Shown here one piece after another: positions 8,842 through 63,561 of a stretch of DNA of 64,000 nt. Below the pieces are notes generated by a model, which saw only the letters and a program-made list of their open reading frames with translations, did not search any database and was not told the DNA's origin. The first letter of the stretch is position 1, and each line of letters starts with the position of its first letter. Both the position numbers and the translations under genes were made by a program. Origin of the DNA: Candidatus Omnitrophota bacterium (GTDB taxonomy: Bacteria; Omnitrophota; Gorgyraeia; Pluralincolimonadales; Pluralincolimonadaceae). The stretch lies in the NCBI GenBank assembly GCA_028716565.1, contig JAQUPL010000003.1, positions 66,029 through 130,028 on the forward strand, read 5' to 3'.

Positions 8842-9585
8842 ATGGGCGTTTTATCCAATATATTAATAAGTGTTTTTATCGTAAGCGCTATTTCGCTTAT
8901 AGGTATATTTACGCTGCTGTTCAAGAACAAGTCGCTCGACAAGTTATTCTTCGTGCTGGTGAGTTTTGCTACCGGCTCGATGCTCGGTGCGGCTTTTTTG
9001 GACATTCTTCCGGAGGCGGTGGAGAAGGCCTCGCCGGAAATGGTATTCGGGAGCGTGCTTCTCGGCATAATGGTCTTTTTTTTGATGGAGAAGTTCCTCT
9101 ATTGGTATCACTGCCACGAAGGGGAATGTGATGTCCACCAGTTCACGTATTTGAATCTTGTGGGCGACAGCATACATAATTTCCTCGACGGCGTGATCAT
9201 AGCAGCGGCCTTCTTAACGAGCACGTCGGTCGGCGTCATAGCGACAATAGCGATAGTGATGCATGAGATACCGCAGGAGCTGGGGGATTTCGGTATACTC
9301 GTCTACGGCGGCTTCAGCAAAGTCAAAGCGCTGATATATAATTTCATCACCGCCCTTACCGCAGTCGTCGGGGCGGTAATAGCGTATTTTTTCCTGGACA
9401 AGATAACGGGCTTTACGCCTTTCATGCTTGGGATCGCCGCGGGAGGCTTTATCTATATCTCCTGCACGGACCTTATCCCGGAACTTAACAAAGAAAGAAA
9501 GGTTACCAAGTCTGCACAGCAATTCGTCTTAATGCTGCTCGGAATGGGACTTATACTGGCCGGTAAGATATTCTTCAAAGAATAG
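8842..9585 (+). CDS. ZIP family metal (Zn/Fe) transporter
   Basis: Multi-TM protein with the ZIP signature HEIPQELGDFGIL and a His-containing segment. Confidence 0.75.
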   Translation: MGVLSNILISVFIVSAISLIGIFTLLFKNKSLDKLFFVLVSFATGSMLGAAFLDILPEAVEKASPEMVFGSVLLGIMVFFLMEKFLYWYHCHEGECDVHQFTYLNLVGDSIHNFLDGVIIAAAFLTSTSVGVIATIAIVMHEIPQELGDFGILVYGGFSKVKALIYNFITALTAVVGAVIAYFFLDKITGFTPFMLGIAAGGFIYISCTDLIPELNKERKVTKSAQQFVLMLLGMGLILAGKIFFKE

Positions 9586-22942: not shown

Positions 22943-23044
22943 CCCCGAATGTAGTGTTTCGTGGTAGAATATCTTCGGGGTGCCGAAGCGAGAACATCTA
23001 TGAGCTACTTCATTCGGCATAGCTCAGTTGGGATCATTGGAAAT

Positions 23045-23305
23045 ATGCATTATGTTTACATATTAAAAAGTAACAGCTCTGGAAGATATTATATTGGTGA
23101 AACAAGTAATATCGATAGAAGATTATCAGAGCACAAAGAGAAGAAGAGTAGTTTTGGTAAAAGAAATTGCGATTTAGTTCTTGTCTATAGCAGAGAATTT
23201 CACAACAGGACAGAAGCTCGTAAGTTTGAGAATTTCCTGAAACGGCAAAAGAGCCGGACGTTCATTGAAAGATTAGTTTCAAATAAAATATCCGCTCCCC
23301 TGTAG
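23045..23305 (+). CDS. small GIY-YIG nuclease family protein (COG2827-like)
   Basis: YVYILKSNSSGRYYIGETSNIDRRLSEHKEK...RTEARKFENFLKRQK is a GIY-YIG core; the last 7 codons and the stop are encoded by the tRNA-Asn 5' sequence. Confidence 0.6.
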   Translation: MHYVYILKSNSSGRYYIGETSNIDRRLSEHKEKKSSFGKRNCDLVLVYSREFHNRTEARKFENFLKRQKSRTFIERLVSNKISAPL

Positions 23306-23604
23306 CTCAGTTGGTAGAGCAGTGGACTGTGCAAGGCGCAGCTTCTACAGGAAACTGTAGTTGAAAAAGCAGGAGAATTGTCCGCAGCGTAGTATTAGCT
23401 GACGGAGCGCCGCAGATGTGGCGTCTGGAAGCCCCTCTGGGGTAATCAGCAGCCGAGCCCTTTAGAAATAAAGGGAAGGTTCAGAGACTATGCACCTGCC
23501 TCCTAAACGTAAAGCCGTAGGAGATGATATAGTCCAAGTCCGGTAGCAATACCGGGTCACTTGTAATCCACGTGTCCCTGGTTCGAGTCCAGGCGGGGGA
23601 GCCA
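23296..23604 (+). tRNA. tRNA-Asn(GUU) interrupted by a 233-nt intron-like insertion in the anticodon loop
   Basis: 5' exon 23296-23330 is TCCCCTG-TA-GCTC-AGTTGGTA-GAGC-A-GTGGA-CTGT. 3' exon 23564-23604 is TAA-TCCAC-GTGTC-CCTGG-TTCGAGT-CCAGG-CGGGGGA-G-CCA. The joined exons closely resemble canonical bacterial tRNA-Asn. Confidence 0.6.
23331..23563 (+). ncRNA. putative group I intron within tRNA-Asn
   Basis: Insertion after a U of the anticodon loop and ending in G; possible P1 pairing exon CUGU with intron GCAG (U-G at the splice site); no ORF inside. Confidence 0.5.
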
Positions 23605-27264: not shown

Positions 27265-27885
27265 ATGTGGTATATTTATATATTGAAGTGCAGGGGAGGG
27301 ACTTTATACACGGGCATGACCAAAGATCCGGAACGCCGCTTCAAAGAACATCTGAGCGGGAAAAGCCGTTACACCAGCTACAACCGGCCCGTATGTTTAG
27401 TATATAAAGAGGAATATCCGACCAGGTCCGCGGCGGCGAAACGCGAGGTCGAGATCAAGACCTGGCCGCGCAAGAGGAAGCTCGCGCTCATTAATAAGGA
27501 TAAGGATCTCAAGGAGGCAGGGATGAAAAAAATAATGGCAGCGGCCGCGATATTATGCCTCACGGCGAGTTGTTTCGCGGTAACCCCTTCCCAGCAAAAA
27601 ATGGAACGTGAAGCTTTGGTGGGAGATGATCAGTCGGCAGGGCTTTCCGGGGAAGAGGCGCCCCTCGTGACATTGGCCGGTGAAATAGTCTCGATCAAGA
27701 GGTCGCTCAATAAGATCACGGTCAAGGACCAGAATACGAGCACCGAGAAGGAATTTACCGTAAAGTCTGAAGATATCAAGTCGTTCAAGCTCGGAGATAC
27801 TGTCGAGGTCAAATACAGGCCCGGCTCAGGCGTTGCCGAGAGTATTACGGCCGCGAAACCCTTGCAGCCGTTACCGGCGTACTAA
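27265..27885 (+). CDS. GIY-YIG nuclease domain (27265-27522) in frame with a downstream lipoprotein module (27523-27885)
   Basis: YIYILKCRGGTLYTGMTKDPERRFKEHL...RSAAAKREVEIKTWPRK is a GIY-YIG core with no stop codon before MKKIMAAAAILCLTASC (lipobox); the lipoprotein has its own AAGGAGG RBS and ATG at 27523. Confidence 0.45.
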   Translation: MWYIYILKCRGGTLYTGMTKDPERRFKEHLSGKSRYTSYNRPVCLVYKEEYPTRSAAAKREVEIKTWPRKRKLALINKDKDLKEAGMKKIMAAAAILCLTASCFAVTPSQQKMEREALVGDDQSAGLSGEEAPLVTLAGEIVSIKRSLNKITVKDQNTSTEKEFTVKSEDIKSFKLGDTVEVKYRPGSGVAESITAAKPLQPLPAY

Positions 27886-57056: not shown

Positions 57057-58108
57057 TGATGGAGATACTGACAGGCTTAATAAAAGAGATCTGGCACACA
57101 TTCAGCACGGCCGCGCCATATATTATTTTCGGCACTTTTATGGCGGGGTTCATCCATATTTTCTTTGACCGCGAAAAAGTGGTAAAGCACCTCGGCAAGC
57201 CGGGGCTCAAGTCGGTATTTTTGGCGGCCCTGTTCGGCATACCTTTGCCGCTCTGCTCGTGCGGCGTCCTGCCGACGGCGATGTCGTTGCGCAAGAGCGG
57301 CGCCTCGAAGGGAGCGACACTTTCATTCTTGATATCTACGCCCGAGACAGGCATCGACTCGATATTCCTCACATACGCGTTGCTCGACCCGCTGATGACC
57401 GTATTCCGGCCTTTCGCGGCGCTTATTACCGCCCTGGTGGCCGGCATATCGGAAAACCTCTTCGGGAAGAAAGAAAAACCCGCGGCCGCGCCGAAGGAAG
57501 AAAAATGCGTCTTCTGCGAAGAGAACGGGCACGAACACGCGCACGCGCATTCCTTCTTCAGCAAATTCGCGCACTCGATGGAATACGCTTTTGTGGACCT
57601 GCTCGGGGATATTGCCCTCTGGCTCACCCTGGGCATAATAGCCGGAGGCGTGATATCGTATTTCGTGCCGGCGAGTTTGATCGAGAATTACCTCGGCTAC
57701 GACTTGCGCGCGATGTTCATAATGCTTTTGATAGGGATACCTTTGTATATCTGCGCGTCGGCCTCGACGCCTATCGCGGCGGCGCTCATCGCGAAGGGGA
57801 TGAGCCCGGGCGTGGCGCTCGTATTTTTGCTCGCCGGGCCGGCGACGAATACCGCCGGGATAATCACTATAGCGAAGTTTTTAGGGAAGAGGACGGTCGT
57901 TATCTATCTTTTGGCAATATCGGCATGCACGATCGGCATGGGGCTCCTCCTGAATTATATCTACAAGACTTTCCATATCGACATAATGGCTGTCCTCGGC
58001 AAGGGCTCACATATGCATCTCGCGCAGGACGCGGGCCTTGTCGCAGGACCACTGCTCATCATCCTCATGATAAACGCCCTGCGCAGAAAGATTGCTTGCC
58101 CGGCATGA
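57056..58108 (+). CDS. DUF318/ArsP-type permease
   Basis: Polytopic; LPLCSCGVLP motif and a central His-rich cytoplasmic loop (ENGHEHAHAHS). Confidence 0.6.
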   Translation: MMEILTGLIKEIWHTFSTAAPYIIFGTFMAGFIHIFFDREKVVKHLGKPGLKSVFLAALFGIPLPLCSCGVLPTAMSLRKSGASKGATLSFLISTPETGIDSIFLTYALLDPLMTVFRPFAALITALVAGISENLFGKKEKPAAAPKEEKCVFCEENGHEHAHAHSFFSKFAHSMEYAFVDLLGDIALWLTLGIIAGGVISYFVPASLIENYLGYDLRAMFIMLLIGIPLYICASASTPIAAALIAKGMSPGVALVFLLAGPATNTAGIITIAKFLGKRTVVIYLLAISACTIGMGLLLNYIYKTFHIDIMAVLGKGSHMHLAQDAGLVAGPLLIILMINALRRKIACPA

Positions 58109-58113
58109 ATTAC

Positions 58114-58166
58114 GGTGACAGTATACTTAATTATTGGACGAATGGGGAATTAAGTATACTGTCACT
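58114..58166. repeat. palindromic element A1 (GGTGACAGTATACTTAATT...AATTAAGTATACTGTCAC)
   Basis: Perfect 17-bp inverted arms at 58116-58132 and 58148-58164 around a 15-nt spacer; member of the GGTGACAG family. Confidence 0.8.
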
Positions 58167-58205
58167 ATAATTATTTGTATAATATAAGCAAGAAAGCGTT
58201 AAAGT

Positions 58206-59144
58206 ATGATCAAATTCATAAAAAACCTTAAAACGAACGATACGATCGAGGATGTGTATTTCCTTAAGAAGAAGGAGCTCGCGCTAACGCAAGGCGGCAA
58301 ACCTTACCTCAAGCTGACCCTCTCGGACAAATCCGGCCGGATGGAAGCGAAGATGTGGGAGAATGCCGAGGCCGCCGACGAGATGGTCGCCACAGGCGCG
58401 GCGGTCTTTGTCCAGGGCCGCGTCGATTCGTTCAAGGGCGACCTGCAGATACGCGTCGACCAGATCCGGATCGCCGACCCGAAAGAATATAAATTCGAAG
58501 ACCTCGTCCGCTCGGTCGAGAAGCCTGACGAAATATTCAAGAATATCAAGGGGATGCTCGACGGGATCTCCGAAAAATGGCTCGCGGAGCTGGCGAAAGA
58601 ATTTCTCGCAGACGAAGAGCTCATGGCGAAATTCAAAAAATCGCCGGGCGCGCAGAGCTGGCACAATGCATACATCGGCGGGCTGATGGAACACACGTAT
58701 GAAGTGATGCGCATCAGCGGCGTGGTCTGCGACCTCTATACCGAGGCGGACCGCGACATCGTGATGATCGGCGCGTTTGCCCACGACATCGGCAAGACGG
58801 TCGAGCTTGACATCAACACCTTCGAATATACGGTCGACGGCGGGCTGATCGGCCACTTGACGCTCGGCTACGAGATGGTGTCCGGGAAGATAAAAGATAT
58901 CAAGGGTTTCCCCAGGGAGCTCGCCCTGCGCCTCAAACACATCATCCTAAGCCACCACGGTGAATACGAACAGCAGTCGCCGATACTGCCGAAGACACTC
59001 GAGGCGACGATCGTCTACCAGGCCGACGAGCTCGTCTCGCAGGCGAACGCGGTCAAGGAGATCATCACCCAGCAGTCCGGCGGCGACAAAGTCTGGTCGT
59101 CGTTCGTAAGCCTCAAGAGCCGCAAATATCTGCTAAAGAAATAA
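58206..59144 (+). CDS. YhaM-like 3'-5' exoribonuclease (OB-fold + HD domain)
   Basis: N-terminal OB-fold; HD-domain residues H…HD…H (HNAYIGGLMEHT; AFAHDIGK). Confidence 0.7.
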   Translation: MIKFIKNLKTNDTIEDVYFLKKKELALTQGGKPYLKLTLSDKSGRMEAKMWENAEAADEMVATGAAVFVQGRVDSFKGDLQIRVDQIRIADPKEYKFEDLVRSVEKPDEIFKNIKGMLDGISEKWLAELAKEFLADEELMAKFKKSPGAQSWHNAYIGGLMEHTYEVMRISGVVCDLYTEADRDIVMIGAFAHDIGKTVELDINTFEYTVDGGLIGHLTLGYEMVSGKIKDIKGFPRELALRLKHIILSHHGEYEQQSPILPKTLEATIVYQADELVSQANAVKEIITQQSGGDKVWSSFVSLKSRKYLLKK

Positions 59145-59169
59145 TTAAGGTGACAGTATACTTAATTAT
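59143..59169. repeat. palindromic element A2 (AATTAAGGTGACAGTATACTTAATTAT)
   Basis: Overlaps the yhaM-like stop codon and lies immediately 5' of the osmC RBS. Confidence 0.8.
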
Positions 59170-59180
59170 GAGGAGGAAAA

Positions 59181-59561
59181 ATGTATCACGTAGACGTATT
59201 GTGCAAGGAAGACAGCGTTTTTAACGTCAAGGCGGGCACGGCGGGCATTACGATAGACATGAGCGAGAAGAACCTGTCCCCGCTGCATGCGCTCCTCGGG
59301 GCGTTCGGCTCGTGCGTAGGCGTTTTTGTCAGGAAGTATGCCGACAACCTGAAACTCCCCATCAAGGAATTCAGCGTCTGCGTAGAGTCCGACCTCGTGA
59401 AAGAGAATCCGATGGGTTTCCGCTATATAAGCGTCTCAATAGACTTAAAAGGCGTGGAACTGGACGATACAAAGAGGGAAGGCCTGATGCGCTTCATAGG
59501 GAATTGCCCGGTGGGTAACACGCTGCGCGGCAACCCGGAAATAAACGTTGTCCTTAAATAA
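59181..59561 (+). CDS. OsmC/Ohr family peroxiredoxin-like protein
   Basis: Two conserved Cys regions (LGAFGSCVGV; IGNCPVG) in the OsmC fold; GAGGAGG RBS. Confidence 0.75.
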   Translation: MYHVDVLCKEDSVFNVKAGTAGITIDMSEKNLSPLHALLGAFGSCVGVFVRKYADNLKLPIKEFSVCVESDLVKENPMGFRYISVSIDLKGVELDDTKREGLMRFIGNCPVGNTLRGNPEINVVLK

Positions 59562-59584
59562 TTAAGTATACTGTCACCTTAATT
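59558..59584. repeat. palindromic element A3 = exact reverse complement of A2
   Basis: ATAATTAAGTATACTGTCACCTTAATT; overlaps the osmC stop, so osmC is bracketed by perfect 27-bp inverted repeats. Confidence 0.8.
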
Positions 59585-59918
59585 ATTTCAATATTCTTAT
59601 CGAAGTCGCCGAGCCGATATTTTCCGTTATGGCGGTGCCTGTCGCGTTCACGTGGCAGCCCCTCTTTATCGCCTCTAAGGTGACCGGTTTATAATCGATC
59701 CCATAGAACTGGGTATCGGGAGTGATCTCGAATAAAACCCTCTCGCCGTTGTCGTCAGTGACCGCGATCGTCGGTTTCAGCCCCCTGGACGGGTCGGCCG
59801 ATTTCGCGGAAGTCACCTTACCCGTAATGCTCTGCGTCTTGACCTTTGCCTCTGCCGGCGCGGCGGAAAAAGAAACCACAACCGCACCAAGCAATACCGC
59901 TAACATTATTTTTTTCAT
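59583..59918 (-). CDS. hypothetical small secreted protein
   Basis: Signal peptide MKKIMLAVLLGAVVVSFSAAPAEA; AAGGAG RBS on the minus strand. Confidence 0.4.
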   Translation of the reverse strand: MKKIMLAVLLGAVVVSFSAAPAEAKVKTQSITGKVTSAKSADPSRGLKPTIAVTDDNGERVLFEITPDTQFYGIDYKPVTLEAIKRGCHVNATGTAITENIGSATSIRILK

Positions 59919-60335: not shown

Positions 60336-63300
60336 ATGATCAATCTGAACACCCAGCAAAAATTAGCCGCCGAGACCCTCGACGGCCCCGTATTAGTCCT
60401 TGCCGGACCCGGAACAGGAAAGACCGAGCTGCTTTCCGTCCGTGCGGCGAACATAATCAAGGCAAAGAAGGCCCGCCCCGAGAATATCCTCATCCTCACA
60501 TACACAAATGCCGCCGCGAAGGCGATGAAAGAGCGCCTCGTCAATCTCTTGGGCGCCGACGCGTATAATATCGAGACCGCGACGTTCCACAGCTTCGCGA
60601 ATTCAGTCGTCCTCGAGTCCGAGGAAGCCGCCGAATACATCCAGGAACGCGTCCAGATAACCGACATCGAGCAGATAAAGCTCCTCGAATACATTTTGGA
60701 TAATACAGACGGTATCGACAAGATCCGGCCGTTCCGCGCGCCGTACGCTTTTGAGCGCGAGATAAGCCAGCGCATAACCGAGCTTAAACGTGAAGGCGTT
60801 TCGCCGGCGCAGTTCGCCAAGATAATAGAAAAAACCGAGCCTGACGGGGCCTATATCGAAGAAAAACATATAGAACGGCTCAAGGCCCTGGCTACCGTAT
60901 ATAAGCTGTATGAAGAGTACAAAGCGGGCAAAAATAAGGCACTTTTCGATGACCGGGGCAGGTACGATTACGATGATATGATACTTTTCGCGGTCGAGGC
61001 GATCCGCAATGAACCCGAACTTAAAGCGGCCCTCCAAAAACAATATACCTACATCATGGTCGACGAGTTCCAGGACACCAACGGTGCCCAGATGGACCTG
61101 TTGTTTGAGTTGGTAGGAGATTTTGGTGACAGTTTCTCTAATTCCCGTACCAAGGGGTCTGAATTAGGTAACTGTCACCAAAATCTCTGTTGCGTCGGCG
61201 ATGACGACCAGTCAATATTCCGCTTCCAGGGTGCATCGGTCGCGAATTTCCGCGAACTCAAAAAAAGATTTCCGAAATTAAAAGAGATCCCGCTCGAGAA
61301 AAACTATCGCTCGACCAAAGAGATAATCTCGCTCGCCGGGCGCATAATAAATAACCTTCCGGTAAAAGAGCGCGTCCACGCCAAAGAGCTCGCGCCTGAG
61401 ACAGATTTTAAGAAAAAGACGATCGAATACGACGAATTCACGACCGAGACCGAGGAACTGCTCTTCATCGCGCGCCGCATAAAGGAGATAGCGAATAAAG
61501 AGGAGGTTCCTCTGGATGAAGTCGCCGTTCTCGTGCGCCAGCGTGATGATATCCTCAAGATCGTAGACACTTTCCTGCGCGCAGGCATCCCGTACGCCAC
61601 CGACGGCAAGGAGGATATCGCCGGCGAGAAACGCGTCCGCCAGATGCTCGACGTGCTCTATTTCGCGCACACGCCTGACCTCGACATCGAGCAGAAGGAC
61701 GCCTATCTTTACCGCATTTTGACCGCCGATTATATGCAGATCCCGATGAACGACGTCCTGCGCTTCATCGCCGGCGTCCGGGTGAAAAAATATGAACAGC
61801 GCAAGAAGGGCGAAGCACCGACGGTTTCAATGTTCAGTGAAATCATGAATTCGGTGACAGCTTCTAAGATTGGTGACAAGAATTTGGTGACTGCTTCTCT
61901 AATTCCCGCTAAAAGTGGTAATGAATTAGGTAGCTGTCACCAAATTCTTTCTAGTTTGCTTTTCGAAGCCGAATCTCGCCCCGTCCACGCCATGCTCATG
62001 CAATACATCAAAGACGCCGGCGTCATGAAATTTATCCTCGATAAGTATAATAAAAACGACCTCCTTCGTATCCGCGACCTGCGCGCGCTCACGTCATTCG
62101 TCAACATGGTCAAGGAATCCGACATCGCGCGCCCGGGCATCACGCTCAAGGAATTCATCGACGAGCTGGAGACGCGCAAGGCCCACGGCATGTCCCTGCA
62201 GGGCGAGCTCGTCACGGCGACACAGGAAGGCGTGCGCATCTACACGGCCCACGGCTCAAAAGGCCTCGAATTCCACACGGTATTCATCCCGTTCTGCCTC
62301 GAGAAGAAGCGCTGGCCGAAGCGGCCGCAGGGCGTCTCGATCCCGCTCCCGCCCGAGGTCTACAAGTCGAAGGAGGTCCCGACCGACAAGGATATCTTAA
62401 AACAGCTCGATTATTACGACGAGACGCGCCTCTTCTACGTCGCCTCGACGCGCGCCAAGGCGAACCTCATCTACACCGCCAGCCCGACCGAGAGCGCGAT
62501 CCCGAGCTCGTACCTTACGGGCGTGGCCGATGGGGGAGCCGCCGCCAAGAAAGAAGAGGACCTGCTCAAAGCCGCGCTCGAGATAACCGACGCAGAAGAC
62601 CCGTTCATCGGCACCGACAAGATATTGAAAGATCTTGTCGCCGGCATCTCGCTCAACCCCACATCGCTCAACAATTATATAAATTGCCCGCGCAAATATC
62701 TCTATGATAACGCCCTGATGCTGCCGTCGGGCAAGAAGCAGCCGCTCGTCTTCGGTAACTGCACCCACAAGGCGCTGGAAAATACCTATGATAAATTCAT
62801 GAAGACCGGCAAATTCCCGGATTTTGCGTTCTTTAAGGAGGCGTTCGCCAAAGAGTTAAACCACGAAGCCCCGGAAGCGGCGATAAAGACCGCCTGCCTG
62901 CGCCAGGTCGAGACGTTCAAGGCCTGGTTCAAGGAAGAGTCGCGCCTGCCGGTCAAGCCGCTCGGCCTCGAGAAACGGCTCGTGGTTATGCTTGAAGACG
63001 ACCTTAAATTTTCCGGAAAGTATGATAAAACCGAGCCCGTTGGCACCGCCGCCGTTCGTGTGATAGATTACAAGACCGGCGAGCCGGACAAGCACGTCAA
63101 GGGCATAAACAGTTCGCTCTCGAAAGAGATCCCGGTTGCAAGCGATGAGTTCGAAGGATATTTGCGCCAGCTCATCGCGTACAAACTACTCTTCGACCGC
63201 GATAAGAATGAATCGCAGGGCCGCAAGGTAAAGGAGGGGGTGCTCGTCTTCCTCGACCCGGCCAAAGAGTCGGTTGCCAAGCACGACCTCAAGGCGGGCG

Positions 63301-63485
63301 GATTCGTCAAGAAGAAGGTCGAGCTGACCGAGGATATGGTCGCCGAGCTCGAGTCGGCCATCAAGGACGTCCGTCACCGCATCAAGAAGCTCGACTTCGC
63401 CAAACTGCCGGAGATCGACGAGAAACCCGGCAAATGCGGCCAGGGCAACAATAAATGCGATTTTTACGATATCTGCTGGGGATAG
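60336..63485 (+). CDS. UvrD/PcrA-family SF1 helicase fused to a C-terminal PD-(D/E)xK nuclease with Cas4/AddB-like Cys cluster
   Basis: Motif I AGPGTGKT, motif II DEFQDTN, motif III VGDDDQSIFRFQGA; C-terminus has YINCPRKY...DYKTGEP...KCGQGNNKCDFYDIC (C-x6-C-x5-C); contains two in-frame palindromic-element insertions. Confidence 0.75.
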   Translation: MINLNTQQKLAAETLDGPVLVLAGPGTGKTELLSVRAANIIKAKKARPENILILTYTNAAAKAMKERLVNLLGADAYNIETATFHSFANSVVLESEEAAEYIQERVQITDIEQIKLLEYILDNTDGIDKIRPFRAPYAFEREISQRITELKREGVSPAQFAKIIEKTEPDGAYIEEKHIERLKALATVYKLYEEYKAGKNKALFDDRGRYDYDDMILFAVEAIRNEPELKAALQKQYTYIMVDEFQDTNGAQMDLLFELVGDFGDSFSNSRTKGSELGNCHQNLCCVGDDDQSIFRFQGASVANFRELKKRFPKLKEIPLEKNYRSTKEIISLAGRIINNLPVKERVHAKELAPETDFKKKTIEYDEFTTETEELLFIARRIKEIANKEEVPLDEVAVLVRQRDDILKIVDTFLRAGIPYATDGKEDIAGEKRVRQMLDVLYFAHTPDLDIEQKDAYLYRILTADYMQIPMNDVLRFIAGVRVKKYEQRKKGEAPTVSMFSEIMNSVTASKIGDKNLVTASLIPAKSGNELGSCHQILSSLLFEAESRPVHAMLMQYIKDAGVMKFILDKYNKNDLLRIRDLRALTSFVNMVKESDIARPGITLKEFIDELETRKAHGMSLQGELVTATQEGVRIYTAHGSKGLEFHTVFIPFCLEKKRWPKRPQGVSIPLPPEVYKSKEVPTDKDILKQLDYYDETRLFYVASTRAKANLIYTASPTESAIPSSYLTGVADGGAAAKKEEDLLKAALEITDAEDPFIGTDKILKDLVAGISLNPTSLNNYINCPRKYLYDNALMLPSGKKQPLVFGNCTHKALENTYDKFMKTGKFPDFAFFKEAFAKELNHEAPEAAIKTACLRQVETFKAWFKEESRLPVKPLGLEKRLVVMLEDDLKFSGKYDKTEPVGTAAVRVIDYKTGEPDKHVKGINSSLSKEIPVASDEFEGYLRQLIAYKLLFDRDKNESQGRKVKEGVLVFLDPAKESVAKHDLKAGGFVKKKVELTEDMVAELESAIKDVRHRIKKLDFAKLPEIDEKPGKCGQGNNKCDFYDICWG
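61119..61185. repeat. palindromic element B1, in frame inside the helicase gene
   Basis: GATTTTGGTGACAGTT...AACTGTCACCAAAATC with perfect 16-bp arms plus inner CTAATTC/GAATTAG pairing; encodes ~22 extra residues between helicase motifs II and III. Confidence 0.8.
61847..61947. repeat. palindromic element B2 (composite, three left half-sites), in frame inside the helicase gene
   Basis: GAATTCGGTGACAGCT / TTGGTGACAAG / GAATTTGGTGACTGCT...AGCTGTCACCAAATTC; encodes ~33 residues (NSVTASKIGDKNLVTASLIPAKSGNELGSCHQI). Confidence 0.75.
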
Positions 63486-63491
63486 AAAGGT

Positions 63492-63561
63492 GAATTTTGG
63501 TGACTGCTCCTTAATTCCCCTATATACTTATTGTGAATTAAGGTAGCTGTCACCAAAATTC
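63492..63561. repeat. palindromic element B3 between the helicase gene and the NYN gene
   Basis: GAATTTTGGTGACTGCT...AGCTGTCACCAAAATTC; starts 7 nt after the helicase stop and ends 12 nt before the NYN start. Confidence 0.8.

Follow-up and report, generated by a model that had tools for sequence, protein, structure and literature searches.

How can a gene for a DNA-processing enzyme accommodate palindromic DNA elements within its coding sequence and nevertheless remain intact? This question is raised by a locus near the right end of a 64,000-nucleotide stretch from a Candidatus Omnitrophota bacterium (assembly GCA_028716565.1, contig JAQUPL010000003.1, positions 66,029 to 130,028), here called the window, to which all coordinates refer unless another genome is named. 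In this locus an uninterrupted open reading frame (ORF) of 1049 amino acids (60336-63485, plus strand), encoding a helicase-nuclease, reads straight through two palindromic elements, B1 and B2. This had been claimed in the original prediction, which was made from the DNA letters alone, and the translated peptides are exactly those quoted in it. We consider it probable that B1 and B2 are copies of a non-autonomous palindromic repeat residing in indel-tolerant loops of a functional gene, and that they are translated together with their host.

The host gene (60336..63485, +) encodes a superfamily 1 (SF1) helicase of the UvrD/PcrA type with a C-terminal PD-(D/E)XK nuclease (AddB/Cas4-like, with four cysteines), and the Pfam domains UvrD-helicase, UvrD_C and PDDEXK_1 were detected in the ORF. 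The protein is 100% identical to one annotated in a Candidatus Omnitrophica metagenome-assembled genome and has thousands of orthologues in Omnitrophota. An alignment of 104 orthologues placed all motifs of the SF1 helicase and of the nuclease, as well as the four cysteines, in invariant columns. The best Foldseek matches of the modelled structure were PcrA, UvrD, Rep, AddA and AdnB. The gene is intact and not disrupted. PADLOC and NCBIfam yielded only generic UvrD/GajB-type similarity for the helicase, with every NCBIfam match below its curated cut-off. Therefore, it can neither be called a defence protein nor be named more precisely.

The B elements share a plan of about 65-72 nt, in which two inverted arms of about 28 nt with the core AATTTGGTGACWG enclose a loop of about 14 nt. 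B1 (61117..61187, +) is a complete element occupying site 1, which lies between motifs II and III of the helicase. Its 18-nt arms (61117-61134 and 61170-61187) are perfectly complementary, and as single-stranded DNA (ssDNA) it folds with -23.2 kcal/mol (z = -8.6 compared to shuffled sequences). As RNA the same segment reaches about -37 kcal/mol. The insert at site 2, in the 2B-domain region, is a composite in which a solo left arm is followed by a partial core and one complete element. The outer part, B2a (61847..61877, +), comprises the solo B-type left arm GAATTCGGTGACAGCTTCT and a partial GGTGACA core; its outer left half-arm (61847-61862) pairs with the right arm of B2, and it shows 84% identity to the left arm of B1 over 19 nt. 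A derivation of B2a from an element of the type present in the related locus L001 was rejected, as the B left arm matches far better (17/19 positions to the adjacent B2b arm, read by eye, versus about 64% to the L001 arm). The complete element B2b (61878..61949, +) has 18-nt arms (61878-61895 and 61932-61949) with 94% complementarity and a z-score of -7.5.

A third copy had been predicted just behind the helicase stop codon. It was found there as B3 (63492..63561, +), an intergenic copy in the same orientation between the helicase gene and a YacP gene. B3 starts six bases (63486-63491) after the helicase stop and ends 12 nt before the YacP start codon. With arms of 33 nt (63492-63524 and 63529-63561) it showed the strongest hairpin (z = -12.3), and it is 71% identical to B2 over 62 nt. 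A sister family, A, with the arm AATTA(A/C)GGTGACAGTATACTTAATT, has the core GGTGACAG in common with the B family. Across the elements of both families the z-scores of the ssDNA hairpins ranged from -7.5 to -12.3, and 6 of 24 arm pairs carried two-sided changes keeping complementarity. The sequence TTTGGTGACAG occurs eight times in the window if up to one mismatch is allowed, compared to 0.55 expected occurrences, and none of 100 shuffled sequences reached this number. As both the repeat count and the hairpin scores exceed those of shuffled controls, the palindromic elements are real and lie where they had been placed. B1, B2 and B3 are homologous copies of one palindromic repeat of about 70 nt, which is homologous to the A family, too.

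For B1 the insertion is directly visible in the comparison with orthologues. Its translation product is DFGDSFSNSRTKGSELGNCHQ (residues 262-282). An alignment of 27 sequences showed ELGG(A/T)NI in the nearest orthologues (85-93% identity) at the position where the window reads ELVG-DFGDSFSNSRTKGSELGNCHQ-NL, and at DNA level the comparison with the syntenic L001 gave one gap of 60 nt. The site-1 segment comprises 27 amino acids in the window compared to 7 in the nearest relatives. This corresponds to a net gain of 20 codons instead of the approximately 22 residues originally given. A clean gap at site 1 was present e.g. in the orthologues P0002, P0005, P0008-10, P0013 and P0014. Among 120 orthologues, every more distant one that was resolved by pattern search has 7 or 10 amino acids at this site, and the segment is longer only inside the clade at >=58% identity. 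The spacer between motif II (N249) and motif III (V287) has the predicted length of 37 amino acids, versus about 17 in insert-free orthologues and 19 in PcrA, and the alignment with PcrA (1pjr) shows an 18-residue gap exactly at B1.

Site 2 is located in a hypervariable part of the 2B-domain region and is never a clean empty site among close orthologues, because nearly all of them hold another palindrome or a remnant there. The clean in-frame gaps expected from the orthologue alignment were thus obtained for B1 but not for B2. B2a and B2b together are translated as NSVTASKIGDKNLVTASLIPAKSGNELGSCHQI (residues 505-537), which is the peptide described before, but it stems from a composite insert. 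Orthologues sharing the inserted peptides had been named as evidence that would speak against an insertion; no orthologue carries the B peptides.

In a six-frame translation B1 and B2 each have one stop-free frame, and this is the frame in use. The right arm runs into TAG in the other two frames (AAT TAG; ATT AGG TAG), and the left arm contains a TGA in one frame. The reading frame of the left arm differs between B1 and B2, in keeping with their different centres. The right arm, by contrast, is read in the same frame each time, as had been pointed out for the common G(N/S)CHQ ending of both peptides. As only one frame is open, this shared ending is a survivorship signature rather than a designed peptide.

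The structural context of the inserts was assessed with an AlphaFold model based on the alignment of 104 sequences (predicted local distance difference test, pLDDT, 85.2; predicted template modelling score, pTM, 0.83). It replaced an earlier model from 27 close sequences, which was not interpretable (pLDDT 62, pTM 0.34). The only segments with a pLDDT below 50 lie within residues 265-279, inside B1, and 516-527, inside B2, and both are modelled as coil flanked by confidently predicted secondary-structure elements. The B1 coil is placed between a helix (250-260) and a strand (283-288). The B2 coil connects two helices (499-511 and 530-542), the second of which begins, in the model, with the peptide ELGSCHQIL encoded by the right arm of B2. 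The assumption that the protein tolerates both inserts as surface loops is therefore well supported by the predicted structure, and B1 and B2 probably form such loops.

These data also bear on the possibility of a pseudogene in decay, of inserts created by faulty assembly, or of untranslated intervening sequences that are eliminated before or during translation. Chimeras at repeats can occur in metagenome assemblies, a possible mosaic of two relatives, L041 and L048, being an example (see below), and a hairpin as strong as that of the B1 RNA could in principle impede ribosomes. All 1049 codons are uninterrupted and every catalytic motif is conserved, so that the disrupted pseudogene considered in the original prediction was not found. 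Furthermore, the inserts keep the frame, the sole open frame being the one used, and comparable inserts are present in independent assemblies from NCBI, JGI and ENA. No intron- or intein-like feature was detected in the elements, which are hairpins of 66-105 nt lacking an Rfam match. We regard these explanations as extremely improbable.

Do related genomes show insertions at the same positions? The DNA-level comparison covered 12 genomes, the window and eleven orthologous loci from NCBI, JGI and ENA assemblies. The window carries B elements at both sites. In L041, members of the GGGGACGTCCCATTCGGGGACAC family occupy both sites and are identical at 71/71 positions; L042 has the same family at both sites (76/77 positions identical). 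L050 carries the GGGGGCCATACAC family at sites 1 and 2, and L046 a half-element of the GGGGACGTGTC family at site 1 and a full element of it at site 2. Thus, where both sites are filled (window, L041, L042, L046, L050), they hold the same family. L047 shows a decayed remnant at each site. Site 1 is empty in L001, L043 and L049, and site 2 of these genomes contains a TTGGGGACGTTTCAAAAAGGG palindrome, a GGGGCCATCCCGCTCGGAGCCACCCT palindrome and a further palindrome, respectively. L044 and L045 have an element of the GGGGAC family at site 1 and no palindrome at site 2, and L048 exhibits the footprint-like sequence GGGGGGACGCC at site 1 and a solo right arm at site 2. At least five unrelated-looking palindrome families therefore occur at the same two codon-level positions. 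Of the 12 genomes, 8 have a palindrome at site 2 and 2 others retain decayed remnants there. The families have a terminal or sub-terminal core in common, (A)ATTTGG(G/T)GAC.

In a neighbour-joining tree calculated with both sites masked, the GDVPFGDT element was found at site 1 in four scattered lineages (P0025, P0030, P0020 and P0007). Their sister lineages have the short insert-free form, for three of them the conserved ancestral 10-amino-acid sequence. As the carriers are scattered and their sisters keep the short form, site 1 was gained independently at least 3-4 times. A single ancient insertion at site 1 followed by concerted evolution throughout was rejected: the carriers are nested among sisters with the ancestral sequence, and excision could not have restored it. 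The empty site-1 versions in the sub-clade of the window (L048, L043, L001) are G-rich and comprise 7-9 amino acids, i.e. 1-3 codons less than the ancestral form, and that of L048 (GCAGGGGGGACGCCGAAT) resembles the joined ends of a GGGGAC...GTCCCC element. These short versions could be excision footprints rather than never-occupied sites.

Insertions of this kind were detected outside the two sites, too. In L001, half-elements are present in two spacers, and elements of another family in two spacers of the downstream variable region. The local density can reach about one element per 3 kb, a value seen around the helicase gene of a related genome. A minus-strand gene of L001 (8880-9590 of that locus), encoding an OmpR-type response regulator, contains the half-element GGGGTGTCCCCCAATGGGACGTCCCC in frame at 9300-9360. 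It falls in the alpha3-beta4 loop of the receiver domain, which is read HE-MGCPPMGRP-PVLILTA. Since this gene carries an insert, in-frame insertion is not confined to the helicase and is a general behaviour. A further element copy was observed at the annotated 5' end of the same gene. The helicase gene of L041 has a third in-frame insert of 33 nt (673-705 of that gene), CCCGCACTTT CTGAC AAAGTGCGGG, forming a perfect 10-bp stem with a 5-nt loop and encoding PALSDKSAGQV between AIRN and EPEL. The close relative L048 lacks this insert, whose shape is REP-like (repetitive extragenic palindrome) and which belongs to a further family.

The repeated use of two positions suggests an alternative, namely that the loops are specific landing sites, recognised by sequence, DNA structure or a pre-existing palindrome, or that insert-bearing alleles recombine between lineages in a homing-like manner via the conserved flanking motifs (motifs II and III in the case of site 1). 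We consider this explanation rather doubtful, and the observations point in both directions. The scattered GDVPFGDT carriers with their short sisters and the same-family occupancy of both sites in the window, L041, L042, L046 and L050 would fit it. Moreover, the DNA of the GDVPFGDT element in L042, L044 and L045 is much better conserved than the host genes (about 60-65% protein identity). Against this, the flanks of the element in these three genomes are synonymously as diverged as the gene, with no shared recombination tract visible, and the left junction shifts by 3-12 nt between lineages. All copies of the GGGGAC family in helicase genes (6/6) have one orientation and one frame, though three to six are free of stops. 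Among these, the frame in use yields the peptide that is most hydrophilic and rich in Gly, Pro and Ser, so that selection alone could favour it.

Between the helicase genes of L041 (2445-5627) and L048 (88-3138), which stem from sister samples, identity amounts to 87-89% in the 5' 1.8 kb but rises to 98-100% in the 3' 1.4 kb and the genes downstream. The transition, located directly behind the site-2 element, suggests recombination within the gene; this mosaic is either due to recombination at the palindrome or to a chimeric metagenome assembly. In L043, L046 and L047, the roughly 20 kb on either side of the helicase gene, taken together, showed no second intact palindrome belonging to the family of the respective genome, which would be in line with landing at specific sites. 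The elements of L001 in spacers and in another gene show that insertion is not helicase-specific, and no target motif common to sites 1 and 2 was found. In its most far-reaching form, this alternative states that an Omnitrophota palindrome super-family with the (A)ATTTGG(G/T)GAC core uses the two helicase loops as preferred landing pads, with the family active in a given genome arriving at both of them in fixed orientation and frame, for which we see about one chance in four. If it were true, it would imply site- or structure-directed insertion, gene conversion or a homing-like spread of alleles through the helicase motifs. It might also link hairpin elements to a hairpin-processing enzyme, including variation in its regulatory 2B domain.

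Another possibility is that the hairpin itself is useful in cis, by tuning expression, by pausing translation between domains or as a substrate of the helicase-nuclease, with the peptide being a by-product. The frequency of palindromes and remnants at site 2 would be consistent with such a role. So would the preserved complementarity of the arms, for which two-sided changes were seen in 4 of 27 pairs of the GGGGAC family as well; complementarity is, however, equally expected if one transposase must recognise both ends. A/B elements are located on or just after stop codons, where REP-like hairpins affect transcript ends. Site 1, on the other hand, is empty in most orthologues, L044 and L045 have no palindrome at site 2, and in more distant orthologues its place is taken by an ordinary peptide segment. 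Half-elements in decay and footprint-like remnants are frequent (L047, L048), and Rfam gave no match above threshold for the elements, only sub-threshold microRNA-precursor-like or generic hairpin matches. A function of the hairpin in cis is therefore very improbable in our view.

We thus favour non-autonomous repeat copies in permissive loops, for which the following course can be envisaged. An element resembling a MITE (a miniature transposable element with inverted repeats) or a REP doublet would have landed in two indel-tolerant loops of the conserved helicase-nuclease gene. Insertions would be frequent, as the element density in this neighbourhood of a related genome suggests. Purifying selection would remove the copies unless their frame is open, their length is divisible by three and the loop can absorb 20-35 hydrophilic residues. 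This filter, possibly together with a target preference, may leave the same two loops holding the lineage's own family in genome after genome. High insertion pressure and a strict filter can explain much of the site recurrence. The same-family occupancy, the uniform frame and the L041/L048 mosaic do not follow from the filter alone and fit target preference, gene conversion or recombinational allele spread.

Several points weigh against this explanation. None of the 58 ORFs of the window matched a transposase, RAYT (REP-associated tyrosine transposase) or Y1_Tnp model (E <= 1e-8; 1e-6 for the last seven), and the window holds no autonomous partner of the elements. Compared to the empty sites of L001, L048 and L049, the element boundaries are ambiguous by several nucleotides and a few native codons were apparently replaced; no target-site duplication could be resolved at these junctions, where the comparators are too diverged. 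The uniform orientation and frame of the GGGGAC copies are not predicted by pure random insertion plus filter. That the B1 and B2 inserts are translated with the host protein is an inference. Furthermore, all six A/B copies (three B elements and three A copies or arms) are located within 5.5 kb. The remaining 58 kb of the window are free of them, and such clustering is more readily reconciled with local spread or a variable region than with uniform insertion throughout the genome.

No further B copies were found in 185,579 representative genomes or in JGI metagenome contigs, either. A scan with the two-armed B pattern, allowing gaps of up to 55 nt, gave 4 and 34 hits, respectively. These were rejected as B homologues, being other palindromes or operator-like repeats that have only the TTTGGTGACAG core in common with the B elements. 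As palindromes are common, a rough estimate predicts about this number of hits, and they are thus no evidence of homology. Since no further copy was found, the mobility of the B family is deduced from the six A/B copies in 5.5 kb. A search with the 35-amino-acid B2 peptide against 1.84 billion representative sequences returned nothing at E <= 0.001, and a 50-amino-acid concatenate of element peptides yielded one candidate that scored nothing; this type of search is ill-suited to such short queries.

The A family occupies gene ends upstream of the helicase gene. A1 (58107..58175, +) is a complete element, AATTACGGTGACAGTATACTTAATT followed by its inverted copy, and overlaps the TGA stop of an ArsP-type permease gene. 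Its 25-nt arms are 92% complementary (ssDNA fold z = -9.0). In the syntenic L001 this site is empty and the spacer has 18 nt. A2L (59143..59167, +) is a single A arm that overlaps the TAA stop of an HD-domain gene and shows 96% identity to the A1 arm. A2R (59560..59584, +), an inverted single arm with 93-96% identity to the A1 arms, overlaps the stops of the OsmC gene (+, TAA) and of a convergent ORF (59583-59918, -, TAA). A2L and A2R bracket the OsmC gene in the manner of terminal repeats. OsmC is found in the same place in relatives without A arms. The ends of the A arms, AATTAA/TTAATT, are rich in stop codons.

In L001, L043, L046, L047, L048 and L050 the helicase gene is followed by a variable region rich in defence and toxin genes, whose content differs by genome (Fic, AbiEii, type I restriction-modification, DpnI, TIR-domain and Gp49/helix-turn-helix pairs). 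The window stops short of this region, which may account for the clustering of elements at its right end.

Some further repeats were noticed during the searches. A palindrome family of about 95-100 nt (ATGTCATACAGGTTTGGTGACAGCTTGCGAGCAGGATCAGGACGGAAC...) is present on about 13 contigs, which judging by their names may come from related JGI samples (L008, L010, L011, L013, L018, L020, L022, L026, L029, L034, L037, L038 and L040); it shares only the GGTGACAG core with the window elements. Thirteen metagenome contigs (L009, L012, L015-L017, L019, L021, L024, L031, L033, L035, L036 and L039) contain a conserved non-palindromic segment of about 75 nt with three TTTGGTGACA/TGTCACCAAA boxes, one inverted and (mostly) two direct, which looks more like an operator or a small structured element than a mobile repeat. 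In the window, positions 23320-23556 matched the Rfam family RF00028, the group I catalytic intron, though only marginally (52.5 bits, cut-off 50). This match is located directly downstream of a 114-amino-acid GIY-YIG ORF (22961-23305), apparently in an intergenic region; a second GIY-YIG ORF lies at 27265-27885.

With these insertions a poorly studied, uncultivated phylum is added to the few listed lineages whose proteins contain segments encoded by selfish palindromic DNA. The locus offers a clean case, as poor modelling in the predicted structure is limited to residues derived from the elements. That two fixed sites are occupied repeatedly, in each genome by a family of its own, represents a tractable natural experiment to distinguish permissive loops under heavy insertion from target preference or gene conversion. 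In practice, such inserts inflate the apparent divergence and the number of indels when helicases are aligned, and breakpoints of recombination or assembly may arise from them.

How do these elements relate to known systems? Rickettsia palindromic elements (RPEs; Ogata et al. 2000, summarised in PMC10969869) lie in frame in unrelated housekeeping genes and are translated along with them; they account for 44 in-frame insertions in R. conorii and are reported to be compatible with fold and function of the host protein (PMC10969869). Like RPEs, the elements described here are short palindromic repeats of multiple families and copies which lie in frame in genes staying intact, so that the comparison drawn in the original prediction is valid for this behaviour. 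The suggested novelty beyond Rickettsia did not stand, as in-frame intragenic REPs and MITEs are known from many bacteria (PMC3733652, PMC10969869, PMC5896051, PMC2759123, PMC3184786). The B elements have no established sequence relationship to the families RPE-1 to RPE-10 and differ from them in host and length: the host belongs to the Omnitrophota and not to the Alphaproteobacteria/Rickettsiales, and with 65-72 nt they have about half the size of RPEs (roughly 100-150 nt; about 150 bp in PMC10969869). In contrast to RPEs, different families occupy the same two codon-level sites in different genomes.

REP units consist of a stem of 8-9 bp (or longer) with a 4-5-nt loop and an unpaired GTAG or CGTC tag at one end. 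They form genome-specific families, mostly at gene ends with a minority in frame in ORFs, and those of the CGTC class have no dedicated transposase nearby (PMC3733652). The head-to-head dimers B1, B2b, B3 and A1 and the single arms A2L, A2R and B2a resemble REP doublets (REPINs) and their single units. Unlike REPs, the arms (GAATTTTGGTGACWGCTYCTCTAATTC) lack a tagged stem-loop unit. GTAG occurs inside the right arm of B2 and B3, not of B1, and no hairpin follows it. Furthermore, a RAYT gene (IS200/IS605-type Y1 transposase) is missing among the ORFs of the window.

MITEs lying in frame in genes are known as QMITEs from Coxiella (PMC5896051) and as ERIC and RU elements from enterobacteria (PMC2759123; reviewed in PMC3184786, PMC2229807). 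They share with the present elements, which have 65-105 nt and an inverted repeat over nearly the full length, the small size, the inverted-repeat structure, the presence in multiple copies, the lack of coding capacity and the gain of new peptide segments in the case of occasional in-frame insertion. The cited MITEs are characterised by defined terminal inverted repeats and target-site duplications, and many of them by a parent insertion sequence; none of these features could be established here.

Homing elements such as inteins and group I introns likewise reoccupy the same positions by conserved motifs of a DNA-metabolism gene across lineages. Unlike these, the inserts have no splicing capacity, no endonuclease and no Rfam match above threshold, they would remain part of the mature protein, and with 20-33 amino acids they are far too short for an intein. 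The likeness is only an analogy for the recurrence pattern. A full-text literature search pairing Omnitroph* with 'palindromic' returned papers on unrelated topics only. The kind of event is thus already known, and the lineage and the families are new. What this locus adds to the known systems is the recurrent, family-independent occupation of two fixed loops.

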